A DNA stretch of 36,937 bases, from the IMG/VR virus record IMGVR_UViG_2698536485_000021; one strand, given 5' to 3'. Both the position numbers and the translations under genes were made by a program. The stretch comes from a virus (lineage: Duplodnaviria > Heunggongvirae > Uroviricota > Caudoviricetes). The notes under the pieces are model-generated. The model was not told where the DNA came from, ran no database searches, and saw nothing but the letters and a program-made list of their open reading frames with translations. Shown in pieces: positions 1 through 26,550 of the stretch. Numbering within the stretch: the stretch's first letter is position 1; each line of letters begins with the position of its first letter.

Positions 1-1053
1 TTACGGGGTAATGCCAACCGCTGCCGCCACTTTGTCGCCACTTGGCAGCGTTGCCAGAGGATTGAAACGGAGCGCCGTTTCCAGATGATCCGGTGCCAGA
101 TGTGCGTAACGCATAGTCATTTTTATATCGTGGTGTCCGAGAATTTTTTGTAAGGCCAGAATGTTTCCACCCGACATCATGAAGTGCGCCGCAAACGTAT
201 GGCGCAGAACGTGTGTGAGTTGACCGCGAGGGAGCACGATAGACGTTTTTTCCATCACGGATAAAAATTGAAAATAGCAGTCTGTGAAGAAATTGAACCC
301 ATCAAGCGCCATGATCTCTTCGTAAAGCTCTTTACTGATAGGGATGCTTCTATTTTTCTTCCCCTTCGTTCTTACAAAGGTAATTCGGTATTTGGTCACC
401 TGTGAACGAGTAAGATTTATGGCTTCTCGCCAGCGTGCGCCTGTGCTTAAGCATATCTTAACTACCAGTGCCAGAATTGGGTCCTGACGTTTGCAATCAG
501 CCAGTAATTCAACAATCTGCTCATGGGTAAGCCATGCCATCTCTTTTTCTGCGATGGTGAATTTTCGCATGTTCTCCAGTGGGTTCGGATACGACCATTC
601 GCCCAGGCGGGATAGTTCGCTAAAAACACTACTTAGATAGCTTTGCTCCAGGTTAATGGTGACCGGGCTTGCTCCTTTCTTCCATTTCTCGCTGAAGTAG
701 ATCTCACCTGTCAGGCGTTTATCTCGATAGTGGGCAAACATTTTAGAGGTTAGATCAGTTGCAAGGGGATTGCCCAGAGCGTCAACCATCAGCAGCAATT
801 TGTCATAGACATGCTGCCCAGCTGTCAGTGATTTACCATGTAGTTTGAACCATAGCTCAACCACGTCTTTCAGTGTTCGACGATCCACTGATTCACCTAG
901 CCAGGGCTTTGCTTCGGTTTCTTCCATCGTGTGACGCTCAAAAGCCAGTGCTTCGCCTTTGGTGGCGAATTGTTTACGCACACGACGTCCACTACGTCCG
1001 GCGGGGTAACATTCGCAAAGCCATTTTCCTGTGGTGAGTTTTCGTACTGCCAT
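1..1053 (-). CDS. int: Tyrosine recombinase / phage integrase (P2/186 Int-like), complete; stop codon at 1-3
   Basis: 350-aa ORF; C-terminal catalytic-domain motifs (ARWRE, HVLRHTFAAH, HHDIKMTMRYAHL); position beside the att core and repressor. Confidence 0.9.
   Translation of the reverse strand: MAVRKLTTGKWLCECYPAGRSGRRVRKQFATKGEALAFERHTMEETEAKPWLGESVDRRTLKDVVELWFKLHGKSLTAGQHVYDKLLLMVDALGNPLATDLTSKMFAHYRDKRLTGEIYFSEKWKKGASPVTINLEQSYLSSVFSELSRLGEWSYPNPLENMRKFTIAEKEMAWLTHEQIVELLADCKRQDPILALVVKICLSTGARWREAINLTRSQVTKYRITFVRTKGKKNRSIPISKELYEEIMALDGFNFFTDCYFQFLSVMEKTSIVLPRGQLTHVLRHTFAAHFMMSGGNILALQKILGHHDIKMTMRYAHLAPDHLETALRFNPLATLPSGDKVAAAVGITP
19..40. repeat. attL core: 22-bp direct repeat CGCTGCCGCCA(C)TTTGTCGCCA, left copy, overlapping the 3' end of int
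   Basis: Same 22-mer with one mismatch (C vs T at position 12) recurs at 34083-34104; flanks differ on both sides; the copies bracket all phage genes. Confidence 0.6.
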
Positions 1054-1136
1054 AAAAAAGCCCTCATATCAGAGGGCTAAATTTAACTGTATATGCAACC
1101 AGTAATCAATGTGTGATTGCTATGAAACATACATTG

Positions 1137-2813
1137 CTAAGCAACATGTAGTTCATCGTTGGCGGAAGTGGCTGCTTTGCGTTCCTGCTCAATAGCTAGT
1201 GACTCTCTATATTCTTTCGCCTCTGCAAACATTGTCCAGTGGGCATTGATGTTCATATCTTCAATAACCGATTTAATTTCTTTAATATTTACGTTAAAAA
1301 ACTCTTTTCGTGAGTTAATTTTATTGACCTGCTTTTCGTTGAAGACTTTATGCAGATGATTTTCTAATGACGGTGCATCATCACTATAAATCATCGCATG
1401 AACATCGAACGAAAAAGGAACACTAGCATCCCCAAGTTCACGAACACGATCAAGTGGTTCAAGGCGGCGTGTCATTCCAATTTTATATACATCTTCGCCA
1501 AATGAGCCAATATTGCTAATTATATAAACATGGCCTGATCTAGTTTGTTGAGCCATAGAAATAGCTCGTTGGTTTTTAGCTTCAGCTTCTTCATATTTTA
1601 ACTGTAGTTCAGCTATTTTTTGCTCTAAAGCTAAGCGTTGTTCTTCATTTGCAAGCATAAGCTCTTTCGTTGCTTTATTTATAGCTTGCTGAATAGCTTT
1701 TTCTTCTTTTTCGGCTTCTTTTATCGCTTTTTCATACTCTCTACGAGCTCTTTCCTCTTCACGAAGCTGTTCTTTAATCCTTCTTTGCTCCTCTTTTTCT
1801 TCGAGCATAATTTCATTAACTGCAACTCCCCATTTTAGCTCGTTGAGTCGTGCCTGAAGATAGATGTCACTTATTTTTGCGGATCTAAAAGCAGAGCCAT
1901 TATAATTTACAAGTTGAAATGCATCTTTTATTTCTTGGGAAAGTTTTCCAAAATTGTTGTGTTTGACTTTTGATAAAATACTGTCAACTCTTCCATTGAA
2001 GGCATCCAAAACAAAGTTGATAGCAGTATTACGCCTGTTTTGCTCAACATAATCACACGAAGCTGCTTTATTAGTTTTTATTAATGATTTTGTTAACTCC
2101 CTGGCTTTTTGTAATTCCTTGCCTGCATCTGTAAACTCATAATTTTCTGCCAATTCATCAAGTACACTACGGTTAGGGATGATCCATTCATCGCCATAAC
2201 CTTCAATTTTATTTTTCATTGATTTGGCAACTGCTTCATATTTTTCTGCAAACTCTTTAGCTTCATATGCTGAACCAGCAATCTCTTTTGCTCTTTCTTC
2301 TGCATCGGAAATAATTTTTACTGCGTTGTCATTAGCATTTGAGATCAGCTCATTTGCTTTACTGTTGGCATTATCAAGACGTTCTTTGGCTTTCAGGCGT
2401 GCATCGCGAGCGTCTTTGGTGATTGCTATAGCTTCGCTATTAGCGTTGCTTATTGTTATCTGAGCTTGATAACTTGCTTCGTTTACTGTCTTAGCTGCCT
2501 TTATTTGGGCTTCTTCTATTTTTTGCCTAGCTATTGAGTCTGCATTTTTTATCTTATTCTCTGCCTCCATCACTGCGCTGTGCAATTCTTCGTATTGCCA
2601 TAATGGTGCTGCTCGCCCTTCAAGCTCTGATAGATCTCGTGCAGTCTGTGCTAACTTTTCTTGATTTTCACTCAGTTGGCTGGAAAGGGCTATGTTGTTA
2701 GCCGTCTGGTTATCTATGGCGGCTTTGTGTTCTTTACTTTGCTTAAATAATATTATAGCTAGAACAGGGGCGAGAAATGCTAATAAGAATATAACGATGG
2801 AAAATGAATTCAT
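1137..2813 (-). CDS. Membrane-anchored coiled-coil protein with C-terminal T5orf172 (GIY-YIG-like) domain; N-terminal part resembles DUF4041
   Basis: 558-aa ORF; N-terminal hydrophobic helix (FSIVIFLLAFLAPVLAIILF); long low-complexity A/E/K/Q-rich helical region; C-terminal GHVYIISN...YKIGMT...FNVNIKEIKSVIE matches the T5orf172 pattern; AGGA RBS 8 nt upstream; region visibly AT-rich. Confidence 0.75.
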   Translation of the reverse strand: MNSFSIVIFLLAFLAPVLAIILFKQSKEHKAAIDNQTANNIALSSQLSENQEKLAQTARDLSELEGRAAPLWQYEELHSAVMEAENKIKNADSIARQKIEEAQIKAAKTVNEASYQAQITISNANSEAIAITKDARDARLKAKERLDNANSKANELISNANDNAVKIISDAEERAKEIAGSAYEAKEFAEKYEAVAKSMKNKIEGYGDEWIIPNRSVLDELAENYEFTDAGKELQKARELTKSLIKTNKAASCDYVEQNRRNTAINFVLDAFNGRVDSILSKVKHNNFGKLSQEIKDAFQLVNYNGSAFRSAKISDIYLQARLNELKWGVAVNEIMLEEKEEQRRIKEQLREEERARREYEKAIKEAEKEEKAIQQAINKATKELMLANEEQRLALEQKIAELQLKYEEAEAKNQRAISMAQQTRSGHVYIISNIGSFGEDVYKIGMTRRLEPLDRVRELGDASVPFSFDVHAMIYSDDAPSLENHLHKVFNEKQVNKINSRKEFFNVNIKEIKSVIEDMNINAHWTMFAEAKEYRESLAIEQERKAATSANDELHVA

Positions 2814-2833
2814 TTTTAAATCCTTTTACTATA

Positions 2834-3121
2834 TCAATTTGAAACTATTGTACTTCTTATACAAGCAACCACTTCAATATCAGAAAATGCACATTCAAAG
2901 CTATTCTCTGTAGTTGTAATTTTAATCATACCTTTTGGAAGCTTTGTGATTTTTCGAATGGAATAGGTTCCGTCGATGTTGATTAACCAGTGTCCATCAA
3001 GTACTTCAGAAAATTTTTGATCACAAATGTATGTGACAAGCCCATCCTGAATAACAATTGGTGATGAAAGATTTGCAGGAAGAAATGATGAATCGAATAC
3101 ATATGAACCATCTTCAATCAT
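2834..3121 (-). CDS. 95-codon ORF: either the C-terminal domain of an interrupted 186 CI-like repressor or a separate small gene co-transcribed with the T5orf172 gene
   Basis: Same frame as the HTH ORF at 3191-3430, separated only by one TAA (3191-3193) and 23 open codons; weak RBS of its own; AT-rich like the cargo gene. Confidence 0.45.
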   Translation of the reverse strand: MIEDGSYVFDSSFLPANLSSPIVIQDGLVTYICDQKFSEVLDGHWLINIDGTYSIRKITKLPKGMIKITTTENSFECAFSDIEVVACIRSTIVSN

Positions 3122-3190
3122 TTTGCCTGCGGTAAGGCGAAACTTGGGAAGCTCTTCTGTGGCTACTGTCAGCGAGCTTTGCTTAAGTCC

Positions 3191-3430
3191 TTACCCGGTG
3201 GTTAACCATTTCAGTGAGGTTCCTGTTTCAAGAGCACATTGGATTATCCAGTCTGCAGGAAACGTATCCCGCAAATACCTGTTCGCCAGAGTGCTTTTTG
3301 ATACTTCCAAGTGATCAGCTAAAGCCTGTCGTGTCGTAAAGCCATAAGCTTCGACTAATCGCTCAATCGCAGCCTTACCACCTTTATTGGGATTTATTTT
3401 GATCTCACTTGGGTACTTTGATGTTGACAT
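3191..3430 (-). CDS. Immunity repressor, HTH DNA-binding N-terminal domain (186 CI-like); ends at an in-frame TAA
   Basis: 79-aa ORF with HTH-like segment (TTRQALADHLEVSKSTLANRYL); divergent from the apl/cox-like gene across a 95-bp control region, as in P2/186 switches. Confidence 0.7.
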   Translation of the reverse strand: MSTSKYPSEIKINPNKGGKAAIERLVEAYGFTTRQALADHLEVSKSTLANRYLRDTFPADWIIQCALETGTSLKWLTTG

Positions 3431-3779: not shown

Positions 3780-4289
3780 ATGTTTGATTACCAAGTTTCC
3801 AAACATCCACATTTTGATGAAGCCTGTCGTGCATTCGCATTGCGCCACAACCTGGTGCAACTGGCAGAACGTGCTGGCATGAATGTGCAGATTCTGCGGA
3901 ACAAGCTGAACCCATCTCAACCTCATTTATTAACCGCACCAGAAATCTGGCTGCTTACCGATCTGACAGAAGATTCAACGCTGGTAGATGGTTTTCTGGC
4001 ACAGATTCACTGCCTGCCATGTGTACCGATTAATGAGGTTGCAAAAGAGAAACTGCCGCATTACGTCATGAGCGCAACTGCAGAGATCGGACGTGTTGCA
4101 GCAGGTGCGGTATCTGGTGATGTAAAAACTAGTGCCGGTCGTCGTGATGCTATCAGCAGCATTAACTCTGTAACACGACTGATGGCGCTGGCTGCTGTTT
4201 CATTGCAGGCCCGTTTACAGGCTAATCCTGCGATGGCGAGTGCAGTTGATACCGTGACTGGCCTCGGTGCTTCATTCGGTTTGCTGTGA
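3780..4289 (+). CDS. 186 CII-like regulatory protein (Phage_CP76 family)
   Basis: [20 protein letters not shown]... resembles my recollection of 186 CII; position after apl/cox. Confidence 0.65.
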
Positions 4290-4296
4290 GGTGCTT

Positions 4297-4497
4297 ATGC
4301 TGACGAAAGAACCATCATTTGCATCGCTGCTGGTAAAACAAAGCCCGGCAATGCACTACGGTCACGGCTGGATCATGGGTGAGGATGGTAAACGCTGGCA
4401 TCCGTGCCGTTCACAAGATGAATTGCTGGCAGAACTATCTACGAAAAAACGGGGGAACAAATGGCTATTGAAGGCGCTGCGGCGACTGTTCCATTAA
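4297..4497 (+). CDS. Small early-operon protein, function unknown
   Basis: ORF from ATG 4297 with GAGGTG RBS, tightly packed in the early operon. Confidence 0.45.
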   Translation: MLTKEPSFASLLVKQSPAMHYGHGWIMGEDGKRWHPCRSQDELLAELSTKKRGNKWLLKALRRLFH

Positions 4498-4802
4498 GCC
4501 CCGGTGAACGCCTGAATGGACTTAATCACATAGCGGAATTAAGGGCGAAAGTTTTTGGTTTGAATATTGAGTCAGAGCTTGAGCGGTTTATTAAAGATAT
4601 GCGTGATCCACGGGATATCAATAATGAACAAAATAAACGGGCACTGGCTGCCATATTCTTTATGGCAAAAATTCCAGCTGAACGTCATAGCATCAGCATT
4701 AATGAGCTGACCACTGACGAAAAGCGGGAGTTGATTAAAGCAATGAATCATTTTCGTGCAGTGGTGAGCTTATTTCCCAGACGGCTAACCATGCCGAATT
4801 AA
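4461..4802 (+). CDS. Early-operon hypothetical protein
   Basis: 113-aa ORF, co-directional, overlaps neighbours by a few codons. Confidence 0.5.
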   Translation: MAIEGAAATVPLSPGERLNGLNHIAELRAKVFGLNIESELERFIKDMRDPRDINNEQNKRALAAIFFMAKIPAERHSISINELTTDEKRELIKAMNHFRAVVSLFPRRLTMPN

Positions 4803-4869
4803 CCAACTAATGAAATTAATGGCGTAAACCCGCCGGGCATCCCTTTATCTAAATTCAGGAGAATTGCTT

Positions 4870-5103
4870 ATGCGTAATATTGAAACCCTCACGACCAAAA
4901 CCGGACCGGATGATGCAGGTCTTAATCTTTTACTGACAGAGGCTCGTCTGGAAGAACGCCGGGCAAGGGCTGAAGCAATGGCTGCTCGCCTCGATAGCCT
5001 GGCGTGTCATATCACCTCCCGCCAGCTAAACCACGTCGAAGCGGCAGAACTGCTGCGTGTGACTGCTGAAGCAATCCAGAACGAAGCGCAGGAGATCCAC
5101 TGA
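4870..5103 (+). CDS. Early-operon hypothetical protein (small helical)
   Basis: ATG 4870 preceded by AGGAG RBS; stop overlaps the next start (ATGA-type coupling). Confidence 0.5.
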   Translation: MRNIETLTTKTGPDDAGLNLLLTEARLEERRARAEAMAARLDSLACHITSRQLNHVEAAELLRVTAEAIQNEAQEIH

Positions 5104-5330
5104 TGGCTGATGCAATGGATCTCGTACAGCAGCGCGTTGAAGAAGAACGCCAACGCCATATCCGTGCTGCCCGTGCCAAAACGCCGGGCGTGTCCCGCGT
5201 GCTTTGCGTTGAGTGTGAAGCGCCAATTCCGCCAGCACGCCGCCGTGCCATTCCTGGAGTGCAGCTTTGCATTACCTGTCAGGAAATCGCAGAGCTGAAA
5301 GGCAAACATTACAACGGAGGTGCTGTATGA
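5103..5330 (+). CDS. TraR/DksA-family C4 zinc-finger protein
   Basis: CVECEAPIPPARRRAIPGVQLCITCQ four-Cys motif typical of the TraR/DksA family; P2 has a similar small protein at this position. Confidence 0.7.
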   Translation: MADAMDLVQQRVEEERQRHIRAARAKTPGVSRVLCVECEAPIPPARRRAIPGVQLCITCQEIAELKGKHYNGGAV

Positions 5331-6184
5331 GCACCATCCTGAAATGGGCGGGTAATAAAACCGCCATTATGTCCGAACTGAAAAAATACCTTCCTGCTGG
5401 CCCGCGACTGGTTGAACCTTTCGCGGGTTCTTGTGCTGTGATGATGGCGACGGATTACCCCAGCTATCTGGTTGCGGATATTAATCCTGATTTAATCAAC
5501 CTCTATAAAAAGATTGCCGCTGATTGCGAAGCGTTTATATCTCGTGCCAAAGTTTTATTTGAGGAAGCAAACAGTGAGCTGGCTTATTACAACATAAGAC
5601 AGGAGTTTAATTACTCAACTGAAATTACTGATTTCATGAAGGCGATATATTTCCTGTATCTCAATCGTCACGGTTACCGTGGTTTATGTCGCTATAACAA
5701 GAGCGGGTATTTCAACATTCCCTACGGTAATTATAAAAATCCGTATTTCCCTGAAAAAGAAATTCGCGCATTTGCAGAGAAAGCCCAGCGGGCAACGTTT
5801 ATCTGCGCGAGCTTTGATGAAACGCTGGCGATGCTGCAGGTGGGGGATGTGGTGTATTGCGATCCGCCGTATGACGGTACGTTTTCCGGCTATCACACTG
5901 ATGGTTTCACTGAAGATGACCAGTATCACCTGGCATCCATTCTTGAACATCGGTCATCAGAAGGACATCCGGTCATTGTTTCTAACAATGACACATCCCT
6001 GATTCGTTCGCTGTATCGCAATTTTACTCACCACTATATCAAGGCAAAACGCAGCATCGGCGTGTCAGCTGGCGAGGGTAAATCTGCAACAGAAATCATT
6101 GCTGTTTCCGGGCCGAGCTGCTGGTTGGGATTTGATCCTTCGCGTGGCGTGGATAGTTCTGCCGTGTACGGAGTGTGTGTATGA
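5327..6184 (+). CDS. dam: DNA adenine methyltransferase (Dam-like, N6-adenine MTase)
   Basis: N-terminal KWAGNK and FAGSCAV (SAM-binding) plus DPPY catalytic motif; start overlaps the TraR stop and its stop overlaps the gene A start. Confidence 0.85.
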
Positions 6185-10353: not shown

Positions 10354-11856
10354 ATGGCACCCCTATCAATTTTAGAACGTTTACAAAACGCTGCTAACAG
10401 GCAAGATTTGGCTAGTATCTTGAATCTTAAAACTGCTTTTCTTACGGATGTTATTTATCGTTTAAAAGCTGAAACGCAGTATACACAATTTACTATTCCT
10501 AAAAAAAACGGAGCGCCGAGAGTCATATCAGCACCTACCACTAAGCTCAAAGATATTCAACGTAGATTAGCTGATGTTTTATATTTATGTCGTGCAGAAA
10601 TTTATAAAAAATATAATATTAATCCAGTTTTATCTCATGGGTTTGAAAAAGAAAAGTCAATTATTACGAATGCTGAACGGCATAGAGGTAAAACGCTACT
10701 ACTAAATATAGATCTTGAGGATTATTTTGATAGTTTTAATTTTGGACGTGTTAGAGGTTTTTTCTTATCAAACAGAGATTTTAGATTAAATAATACTGTT
10801 GCTACAACGATCGCACAAATTGCATGTTTTCAGAATGGACTTCCTCAAGGAAGCCCATGCTCTCCAATTATAAGTAACTTAATCAGTGGAATTCTTGATA
10901 TAAGATTATCAAAGTTAGCAAAGAAATACGGATGCAATTATTCACGGTATGCTGATGATCTTACATTTTCAACTAATAAAAAAACATTTCCAAAAGAGAT
11001 TGCTGATGTTGGCGGAGAGTCTGTAACCCTAAGTCCAACTTTAATTAAAGAGATTATAAAGGCTGGCTTTAAAATAAATGATAAAAAGACAAGGGTTTGT
11101 TATAAAACATCACGACAAGATGTTACTGGGTTGACTGTTAATAAAAAAGTGAATGTTGGCAAAGAATATGCAAAAGTAACGCGTGCCATGGCTCATTCTC
11201 TTTATAAAGATGGTTCTTTTGTTATTGTTACTGAATCAGGAAAGATTGAAAAAGGTACATGTGCTAAATTAGAAGGCCGTTTTGGATTCATTGACTCAAT
11301 AGATAAATATAATAATTTAAAACTAAAGAATGCAAGACAGTTGGAAAAGTACCAAAGTGTAAATCATGGATTAAATTACACTGCAAAATTGAATTCGAGA
11401 GAAAAAGCCTACAGTTATTTTCTATACTATAAAAATTTTCATGGAATGGAAATGCCAACAATACTCACTGAGGGTAAAACAGACCGTGTATATTTAAAGT
11501 GTGCTTTGAAGTCATTGGCGAATTCATATCCTTTATTGTTTAATTCTTCTGATGATAGCTCTAAAAATGAGTATCGTGTTAATTTTTTTAAAGCAACTGA
11601 AAAAACAAGCTATTTTCTTGACATTTCTGGCGGTGCTACAGACTTCAAAAGATTTATATTAAGATACCAAGAACAAAAAAAGAGGTTCGAGAAATTTAAA
11701 CCAAAGCACCCTGTTATTATGCTTCTTGATAATGACTCAGGCCCTAAAGATTTATTAAATCACTTAAAGGATAAAGTAAAAATTGTCCAAATGATGTTGA
11801 TACTATTCGTAAGGCAAGGTATACCCACATATTTGACAATCTCTATTTGTTATTAA
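10354..11856 (+). CDS. Retron reverse transcriptase fused to a TOPRIM domain (Retron-Eco2/Ec67-like), reading frame broken near the 3' end
   Basis: RT motifs NIDLEDYFDS, QGSPCSPIISN, RYADDLTFS and retron-type VTGLTVN; TOPRIM-like TEGKTD glutamate and LLDNDSG DxD motif. Confidence 0.8.
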   Translation: MAPLSILERLQNAANRQDLASILNLKTAFLTDVIYRLKAETQYTQFTIPKKNGAPRVISAPTTKLKDIQRRLADVLYLCRAEIYKKYNINPVLSHGFEKEKSIITNAERHRGKTLLLNIDLEDYFDSFNFGRVRGFFLSNRDFRLNNTVATTIAQIACFQNGLPQGSPCSPIISNLISGILDIRLSKLAKKYGCNYSRYADDLTFSTNKKTFPKEIADVGGESVTLSPTLIKEIIKAGFKINDKKTRVCYKTSRQDVTGLTVNKKVNVGKEYAKVTRAMAHSLYKDGSFVIVTESGKIEKGTCAKLEGRFGFIDSIDKYNNLKLKNARQLEKYQSVNHGLNYTAKLNSREKAYSYFLYYKNFHGMEMPTILTEGKTDRVYLKCALKSLANSYPLLFNSSDDSSKNEYRVNFFKATEKTSYFLDISGGATDFKRFILRYQEQKKRFEKFKPKHPVIMLLDNDSGPKDLLNHLKDKVKIVQMMLILFVRQGIPTYLTISICY

Positions 11857-25422: not shown

Positions 25423-26550
25423 TTAGTTAAATGTGTTGATTATTTTTTTTCCAATCTTTATGCATGGTTTTTCAATAGATAAGTAACTTATATATGAAAG
25501 AGAGTAAACTATGGGAAAACATATTATAGATGTTATGAATAACCTTAAAAATGCTGGTTCATGGTGGATCTCGGAATGATTTAACAGGAAGGCGCAAACA
25601 GGTGTTACAATCAGTAAGTGAATTAAGTACACAGAGTATGAAACATCACCAAGCCATACGCTAAATTTATTATTTAATGTTCTTTTGATTTGTTTTTTTA
25701 ATTCATTTTGTTTTGATACGTCGTCGCCATTGACAATATAAAATATAAAAGCGCATAATATTATTTGTATTACCAATTGTTTTGTATTTATATGAATATG
25801 ACTTGTTGATGCAATTATAATTACAAAGATAGCGAGTGCTAGATATGATTTGTTATGTTTAAAAATAGACATATAAACGAGCATTCCGGCAATAAAAATA
25901 GGAAGCTTAATTAAAATAAATGAAGGCATGTGAAACGATTTGAAAAAATCGGGGAAAATAAAAAACATAAAAGTGGATAGTATAGAAGTAATTAATAATG
26001 AAAGCCGCATTCCGAATTTTTCCGCGGCAATCATAATAAATGGGAATATTAAATAATATTGAGTTTCCAATCCTATGCTCCAGTCAGGCAGGGTAGTTCT
26101 GAAACTATAGTCAGGAATCACGCCAAAAATGAAGGAAAGATGTAGCATTATGTTTTTGACTGACTGGTCAGAAAATCTATTTACATCTGTTGCCGTTTGA
26201 GGATAGAAGTCGGCAATGATTTCTCTCATATTTCCAATATATGGGCCGAAATAGATAGCTATAGCTAATAAAATATAATATAGAGGAGCAATACGGAAGA
26301 ATCGCCTAATCCAAAAATTTCTCATTGTACTAAATTTAATCCATGGTTCAATATCTTGTCGTTCAATATAGTTTTTAGTCATCAAGAAACCTGATAAGAG
26401 AATGAACAAATCAACGCCATAAGTTGGTTCACCAAGAATAGGTATTCTGCATTCTGTTAAAATCGCTATATGGCCAATAAATACCCATACAGAGGCAAGT
26501 CCTCTTAGACCTTCAAGCTCAGGAAGCCATCCTTTTCTAGTCATGTGCAT
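25423..26550 (-). CDS. Integral membrane acyltransferase (acyltransferase-3 / OafA-Oac family), probable lysogenic-conversion gene
   Basis: 375 aa, polytopic hydrophobic profile, N-terminal LRGLASVWVFIGH signature; isolated AT-rich gene on the opposite strand between G and FI. Confidence 0.75.
   Translation of the reverse strand: MHMTRKGWLPELEGLRGLASVWVFIGHIAILTECRIPILGEPTYGVDLFILLSGFLMTKNYIERQDIEPWIKFSTMRNFWIRRFFRIAPLYYILLAIAIYFGPYIGNMREIIADFYPQTATDVNRFSDQSVKNIMLHLSFIFGVIPDYSFRTTLPDWSIGLETQYYLIFPFIMIAAEKFGMRLSLLITSILSTFMFFIFPDFFKSFHMPSFILIKLPIFIAGMLVYMSIFKHNKSYLALAIFVIIIASTSHIHINTKQLVIQIILCAFIFYIVNGDDVSKQNELKKQIKRTLNNKFSVWLGDVSYSVYLIHLLIVTPVCAFLLNHSEIHHEPAFLRLFITSIICFPIVYSLSYISYLSIEKPCIKIGKKIINTFN

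Follow-up and report, generated by a model that had tools for sequence, protein, structure and literature searches.

The closest described relative of the locus considered here is PD-lambda-1, a 500-amino-acid protein (RCP76574.1) from Escherichia coli ECOR26 that emerged from a functional selection in E. coli and carries DUF4041 at residues 197-252 and T5orf172 at residues 357-448 (Vassallo et al. 2022, PMC9519451). The protein, now named SNIPE, provides direct, non-abortive defense (Saxton et al. 2025, bioRxiv 10.1101/2025.11.03.685801). Specifically, SNIPE spans the inner membrane once, with a periplasmic N-terminus and the remainder in the cytoplasm; its DUF4041 region makes contact with the tape measure protein as well as binding DNA, ManYZ associates with SNIPE, and lambda DNA is cut during injection. 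Defense is lost in the E414A mutant or upon deletion of DUF4041, and SNIPE without its transmembrane (TM) segment is toxic because the nuclease then cleaves the chromosome. SNIPE acts on siphoviruses but not on BASEL myoviruses or podoviruses (Saxton et al., bioRxiv 10.1101/2025.11.03.685801), and its mechanism has already been cited in a review. Here, we describe a 558-codon gene of this family in the virus record IMGVR_UViG_2698536485_000021, whose full stretch of 36,937 nucleotides (nt) is referred to as the window. The window is occupied by a 186-like prophage that is inserted beside rcdA and extends from int to grxA.

The gene lies at 1137..2813 on the minus strand, as do all features of the window given below unless another strand is named, and its assignment draws on the open reading frame (ORF) itself, PADLOC, Pfam, BLASTP and the PGAP name. 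By family membership, domain order and conserved catalytic residues, all read from sequence comparison, it is homologous to SNIPE (formerly PD-lambda-1). Two PD-Lambda-1 hidden Markov models (HMMs) of PADLOC match it with E=5.9e-120 (PDLC03976) and E=1.9e-116 (PDLC03977), covering amino acids 107-551, and in the first of these alignments amino acids 117-550 correspond to model positions 38-481 of 491. Pfam places DUF4041 (PF13250) at codons 267-322 (1848..2015), scoring 46.6 bits (cut-off 27), and a T5orf172/GIY-YIG nuclease domain at codons 427-520 (1254..1535), where PF10544 (T5orf172, E=5.9e-17) and PF13455 (MUG113, E=1.6e-19) both exceed their gathering cut-offs. A preliminary description of the locus, made from the sequence alone, had recognized the C-terminal T5orf172 domain and had named T5orf172, MUG113 and DUF4041 as the models to search with; all three match, and the domain assignment stands.

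For comparison with the known system, reference-type 500-amino-acid SNIPE genes found in two lambdoid prophages, L003 and L004, were used; their products contain all nine residues discussed by Saxton et al. (E414, L253, E264, K305, E223, T319, W257, I308 and N250) and are therefore reference-type SNIPE. The 558-amino-acid protein shares 49% identity with them over amino acids 265-555 (BLASTP, E=1e-76), and both DUF4041 and T5orf172 are displaced by +70 relative to the reference. E414 of the reference aligns with E484 (codon 1362..1364; local alignment SLENHLH versus SLEKKLH), and a profile of 118 close homologues matches the reference with E=2e-88, limited to residues 263-552. Across these homologues, Y430, Y443, R449, R450, R456, E484 and E504 are approximately 100% conserved. 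The protein as a whole runs from a TM anchor through a helical stalk, DUF4041 and a linker helix to the GIY-YIG (T5orf172) nuclease, which is the single-gene domain order of ECOR26 SNIPE (N-terminal TM, stalk, DUF4041, long linker helix, GIY-YIG/T5orf172); the two are also alike in being prophage-borne, in being matched by the same PADLOC HMMs, and in retaining the glutamate (E414/E484) within a C-terminal region of about 290 amino acids at 49% identity. The exact locus already bears the newer RefSeq/PGAP name 'SNIPE associated domain-containing protein'. The suggestion that the gene might represent an undescribed defense system thus fails against a PADLOC match of E=5.9e-120, the published PD-Lambda-1/SNIPE system and the existing RefSeq name: this is a known system in an ordinary instance, which current tools and annotation recognize.

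Compared with a 96%-identical allele, the gene has a dN/dS of 0.056, and it is under purifying selection: the gene is functional, and its N-terminus is relaxed or diversifying. Judged by its neighborhoods, SNIPE is a single-gene system: here it is flanked by cI and int, whereas the reference type has ren, nin genes and an HD-domain gene as neighbors. Other resources were less informative. No family-level NCBIfam model matches the protein, with DivIVA_Wag31 and SMC appearing only below threshold; the best PHROGs match is phrog_1847, labeled 'unknown function'; and a sequence search of solved structures with the nuclease domain returned chance matches alone (E=0.056 and 0.74).

The preliminary description had proposed an N-terminal TM helix, and a single one is indeed predicted at codons 4-23 (2745..2804), FSIVIFLLAFLAPVLAIILF, where the 19-residue Kyte-Doolittle mean reaches 2.99 and no other segment of the protein exceeds 1.6. 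The basic residues K24, K27 and K30 directly follow this hydrophobic segment on its C-terminal side, and the predicted topology is therefore N-out/C-in, in agreement with the topology determined experimentally for SNIPE. Codons 24-203 (2205..2744) form a stalk rich in A, E, K and Q, for which AlphaFold2 (AF2) secondary structure gives helix throughout residues 2-203 in a low-confidence model. The same description had spoken of roughly 400 amino acids of helical repeats. The composition and the helical character hold; the repeats do not, and the helical stretch is interrupted by the globular DUF4041. A self-BLAST of residues 27-264 returned the identity match alone, without internal repeats, so that the apparent repeats are better described as a compositional coiled coil. 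Pfam applied to the N-region by itself yielded only sub-threshold DivIVA and ATP-synt_B. Structure prediction, which had also been proposed, was informative in part: it supports the helical layout of residues 2-203, and with a mean pLDDT (predicted local distance difference test score) of 57 and a pTM (predicted template modeling score) of 0.23, from an alignment of 22 sequences that are all at least 81% identical, only the secondary-structure layout was used and the folds are left unsupported.

Variation within the 558-amino-acid subtype is concentrated in the same region. Residues 1-120 are about 63% conserved, versus more than 90% elsewhere, and 12 of the 13 amino-acid differences from the 96%-identical prophage L002 fall within residues 17-120. 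Likewise, omega is 0.27 in residues 1-120, about 0 in the rest of the protein and 0.056 overall. Positive selection on the N-terminus was considered and rejected, as an omega of 0.27 is raised without being above 1.

The gene is preceded by a 95-codon ORF on the same strand, at a distance of 20 bp; the preliminary description had given both ORFs and their spacing correctly and had regarded the second as a possible partner. The spacer (2814..2833, read from the sequence) separates the cI stop from the ATG of the 558-codon gene and contains a Shine-Dalgarno-like AAGGA at 2821-2825, 7 nt 5' of that ATG. Rather than a partner gene, the 95-codon ORF (2834..3121) is the final part of the cI repressor gene, severed by a Q80* nonsense mutation. 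It encodes the C-terminal domain of CI (Phage_CI_C, E=2.6e-25), corresponds to residues 104-198 of the intact 198-amino-acid CI of relatives, and lies in one frame with a 79-codon ORF (3191..3430) that carries the repressor helix-turn-helix (HTH) domain (3194-3430; Phage_CI_repr, E=7.5e-31), the two being split by a single TAA at 3191-3193. When the region was examined for an uninterrupted 186-type CI frame, both domains were present and the frame was broken by Q80*. The complete 186-type cI gene of 597 nt (2834..3430; in-frame translation, Pfam and PGAP) is thus a pseudogene here, and RefSeq annotates it as one, with the remark 'internal stop'.

The same 597 nt encode an intact 198-amino-acid CI in L002 and in phage KP12 (L009); KP12 and window cI are one base apart, CAA (Gln80) versus TAA, with CAA being ancestral. 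Among 5,426 complete E. coli genomes, a 65-nt probe centered on the stop has exact matches in only 6 (13E0725, 13E0780, 2014C-3061, OkiPb01680, OkiPb01683 and OkiPb01700), and nine more close relatives are one base off; 159 of the 165 carrier genomes have an intact cI. Q80* leaves the repressor with its HTH domain only, and the C-terminal domain of CI might be re-initiated at ATG 3121.

The position of the gene suggests how it is expressed. The P2/186-type tyrosine integrase (1..1053; Pfam Int_N and Phage_integrase, PGAP 'phage integrase') closes the leftward, lysogenic transcription unit, in which the 558-codon gene stands between cI and int. By analogy with the 186 operon pL-cI-int, it is probably co-transcribed with cI from pL in lysogens. 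A promoter scan found none between cI and the gene, and the same simple scan also missed pR and pL, so that this null counts as weak evidence; placement within the operon (cI, gene, int) without a promoter of its own makes expression in the lysogen probable. A terminator-like hairpin (AGCCCTC-TGATAT-GAGGGCT followed by a T-run; 1059..1078, terminator scan) lies directly 5' of the int ATG. Homology to prophages with other cargo passes through this hairpin, which assigns it to the int flank and not to the cargo, and it may restrict read-through from the cI-cargo transcript into int. The gene had also been described as AT-rich, and the composition scan agrees, with a GC content of 0.33-0.39 over 1050-3150 versus 0.47-0.55 in the flanks.

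Relatives of the prophage show that the interval between int and cI is a variable slot. In phage 186, as the preliminary description had it, no gene intervenes and cI abuts int; the slot is equally empty in phage RE-2010. In the CFT073 prophage, which uses the same insertion site, it holds a 323-amino-acid hypothetical gene together with a 308-amino-acid CI (L008 2550-3521 and 3534-4460, minus strand), and in Klebsiella phage 4LV2017 a 349-amino-acid hypothetical gene with a 313-amino-acid CI (L005 1851-2900 and 2903-3844, minus strand). The proposed comparison of this junction across relatives therefore yields two empty slots and two with other genes, and the expectation of anti-phage cargo beside int holds, given a gene of a validated defense family at a site that is empty in 186 and RE-2010. 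Homology between the window and relatives with other cargo ends at 1118/1136 and returns at 3248/3423; the module is sharply bounded, at 1119/1137 and 3247/3422, and cargo and cI are therefore swapped as one unit. The cI allele, for which the intact L002 allele served as tblastn query, and the 558-codon gene are each found in 165 genomes, which is consistent with joint exchange. The slot is not a new hotspot. In a general form it is already in the literature: Vibrio K139-like P2-related phages have a cI-integrase hotspot, and an integrase-primase hotspot is reported to hold 8% of P2 defense systems (Rousset et al. 2022, PMC9122126; bioRxiv 10.64898/2026.02.27.708500).

The two hypothetical slot genes are observations in their own right. 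PADLOC finds no match for either the 323- or the 349-amino-acid gene, and Pfam gives one sub-threshold DUF2207_C, in the CFT073 gene. The accompanying CI proteins of 308 and 313 amino acids are unusually long, with two Phage_CI_repr HTH stretches each. These uncharacterized slot genes are more novel candidates than the SNIPE-family gene itself.

Taken together, there is a high probability that single-protein, direct (non-abortive) defense of the SNIPE family, as known from the E. coli reference, best explains the 558-codon gene. By analogy with E. coli SNIPE, the nuclease would be anchored in the membrane and kept off the chromosome; upon siphovirus injection, DUF4041 would meet the tape measure protein and DNA of the phage, and the GIY-YIG (T5orf172) nuclease, with E484 as its catalytic glutamate, would then cleave the entering DNA. 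Both cleavage at injection and the phage range of the 558-amino-acid protein are inferred from the reference. Expression in the lysogen would guard host and prophage against competing phages.

Several points weigh against this reading. The N-terminal 262 amino acids have no similarity to the N-terminal 193 of the reference that BLASTP or the profile can detect, and as this is the proposed ManYZ-binding or specificity adapter, neither phage range nor host partner is transferable from the reference. The low AF2 confidence leaves the fold of the globular domains without independent support, and a literature search turned up no experiment on the 558-amino-acid subtype. Two Streptococcus thermophilus homologues that are 98.5% identical differ completely in activity (bioRxiv 10.1101/2024.10.22.618286), so that homology is no guarantee of activity. 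Finally, the nonsense codon in the upstream cI could reduce expression of the gene via polarity, and the prophage is in decay, with an interruption in the tape measure gene as well. The divergence of the N-terminus nevertheless falls within the described diversity of the family, since among about 500 homologues this region shows little conservation and differs in length, and has been proposed to act as an 'adapter', and a TM segment occurs among the initial ~70 residues in 66% of homologues (Saxton et al., bioRxiv 10.1101/2025.11.03.685801).

The divergent N-terminus also invites a variant of the SNIPE assignment, in which the architecture is retained and the specificity module differs: the N-region would dock on an inner-membrane factor other than ManYZ, or on none, and protect against a different set of phages, which might include P2/186-like competitors. 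An N-terminal region of 262 versus 193 amino acids that are not alignable, together with a stalk that is about 70 amino acids longer, speaks for this, and because these ~262 residues bear no relation to the reference, ManYZ dependence is not to be assumed. The concentration of subfamily variation in the first 120 residues (omega 0.27 versus ~0; 12 of 13 amino-acid differences from L002) and the adapter role proposed by Saxton et al. point the same way. Moreover, the residue aligned with W257 of the reference is K327 here (codon 1833-1835); basic residues of this kind are common among homologues, and W257R strongly raises defense against Bas14-18 as well as cross-linking with the tape measure protein of these phages (Saxton et al., bioRxiv 10.1101/2025.11.03.685801). 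On the other hand, the reference SNIPE protects against no BASEL myovirus or podovirus, and the present data identify no partner protein. We regard such a change of specificity as a serious possibility that falls somewhat short of an even chance, and it would refine the SNIPE explanation without replacing it. More tentative still is the wider proposal that the subtype forms a functionally distinct SNIPE class with a non-ManYZ entry route and thereby another phage range, maintained as a cI-linked recombination unit in the cI-int slot.

Other explanations depart further from SNIPE. A silent or remnant gene, with an intact ORF in a decaying prophage and poor expression owing to the upstream nonsense codon, would fit Q80* in cI, the in-frame TAG at codon 58 of the tape measure gene and the failure of the simple scan to detect a promoter of its own; the ORF, however, is intact and has no more than one amino-acid difference to the version in the isolated phage KP12, re-initiation at ATG 3121 could limit polarity, and both nonsense mutations, confined as they are to 6 genomes, are recent, which makes silence in this genome unlikely. 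Quite improbable is an abortive-infection toxin whose nuclease is freed or activated by infection to attack the host chromosome and kill the cell: TM-less SNIPE is highly toxic and cuts host DNA, and many prophage cargo nucleases work by abortive infection, but cells with the reference SNIPE survive and grow at a high multiplicity of infection while the injected phage DNA is degraded, and the domain organization here is that of the reference. A two-gene module with the 95-codon ORF has in its favor the shared strand and the 20-bp spacing. It is hardly credible, because the ORF is a Phage_CI_C domain that shares its frame with the cI HTH ORF and forms part of an intact 198-amino-acid CI in relatives, the split is due to a single C-to-T change in 6 of 5,426 genomes, and the reference SNIPE works alone in another genomic context; the in-frame reading and the intact cI of 159 of the 165 carriers refute both the module and the standing of the ORF as a separate gene, the latter being contradicted also by the RefSeq pseudogene annotation. 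A non-defense structural protein is suggested by labels, namely 'chromosome segregation ATPase' in the KP12 and 813R9 records and 'vacuolar-type H+-ATPase subunit H' from JGI for homologues, and by matches to DivIVA_Wag31 (22.5 bits, cut-off 260) and SMC (15.5 bits, cut-off 729). These matches lie far below their cut-offs and are confined to coiled-coil stretches, so that they reflect composition and not DivIVA or SMC kinship; Pfam finds no ATPase domain, and the strong matches go to the defense family. An SMC-like identity was rejected specifically, as SMC_prok_A aligns with a coiled-coil segment alone, and the chance that any of these structural labels is correct is close to nil.

The locus can be compared with several known systems. 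The reference type resides in the ren-nin region of lambdoid prophages (L003 5805-7307 and L004 5805-7307, minus strand), whereas the gene described here occupies the cI-int slot of a 186-like myovirus prophage and has, by the simple scan, no promoter of its own. In L004, a 515-amino-acid HD-domain protein (3898-5445, minus strand) adjoins SNIPE, and the ren-nin locus appears to be a variable cargo site too. The S. thermophilus PD-Lambda-1 homologues belong to the same HMM family in a distant Gram-positive host, where one gives more than 3-log protection against siphoviruses and a 98.5%-identical one is inactive (bioRxiv 10.1101/2024.10.22.618286). Zorya and Kiwa resemble SNIPE in being membrane-localized and in targeting phage DNA as it comes in, at or close to the entry site; they differ as multi-gene systems of unrelated proteins (the ZorAB motor with ZorC/D; KwaA/KwaB) that sense envelope perturbation instead of binding the tape measure protein, and Kiwa leaves DNA uncut. 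Superinfection exclusion of the HK97 gp15 type likewise relies on prophage-encoded inner-membrane proteins and a tape-measure-dependent block of entry, but these lack a nuclease domain, and injection is blocked without the DNA being cut. As in the hotspots of P2-like prophages, variable anti-phage cargo sits at a fixed position (Rousset et al. 2022, PMC9122126; bioRxiv 10.64898/2026.02.27.708500); in E. coli P2 such cargo classically occupies the gpA-portal (tin/old) and Z/fun loci, whereas the cargo here swaps with the cI immunity allele.

Further features of the prophage bear on its condition and its cargo. The tail tape measure gene (29117-32194, plus strand) carries the in-frame TAG at 29288-29290, which PGAP notes as 'internal stop', and with two nonsense mutations, in cI and in this gene, the prophage is probably defective while the SNIPE-family ORF is still intact. 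A second defense cargo is found at 10354-11856 (plus strand), a retron Ec67-family reverse transcriptase/endonuclease according to the annotation of the near-identical L010; its site, from the replication endonuclease to the portal gene, is the classical P2 hotspot. Between the tail fiber assembly and tail sheath genes, on the opposite strand, lies an acyltransferase family gene (25423-26544, minus strand) at the Z/fun-type accessory locus of P2-like phages; the gene may be a surface-modification moron.

Of 5,426 complete E. coli genomes, 165 carry the 558-amino-acid type with an identity of at least 95%. The subtype is widespread in Enterobacteriaceae, with 82-85%-identical homologues in Citrobacter, Salmonella, Klebsiella and Enterobacter, among others. 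Two phage records, KP12 and 813R9, contain it under the 'chromosome segregation ATPase' label. The former (L009; OM835953.1, 'Klebsiella phage KP12 clone KP12_3') is 99.6% identical to the window over int, the SNIPE-family gene and cI; it is filed under Vequintavirinae with a Klebsiella host, yet has the P2-type genes ogr and D, and looks like an induced Peduoviridae prophage under the wrong taxon.

As such, the locus is a textbook-style prophage with a known defense gene in its lysogenic operon, and its value lies mainly in correct annotation: 'chromosome segregation ATPase' and similar names in phage records are misleading and are corrected here. The findings also show that the int-adjacent cargo of E. 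coli 186-like prophages is exchanged together with the immunity repressor. For the SNIPE family as a whole, a common Enterobacteriaceae subtype with a different N-region offers a natural test case for the 'adapter' hypothesis on specificity.

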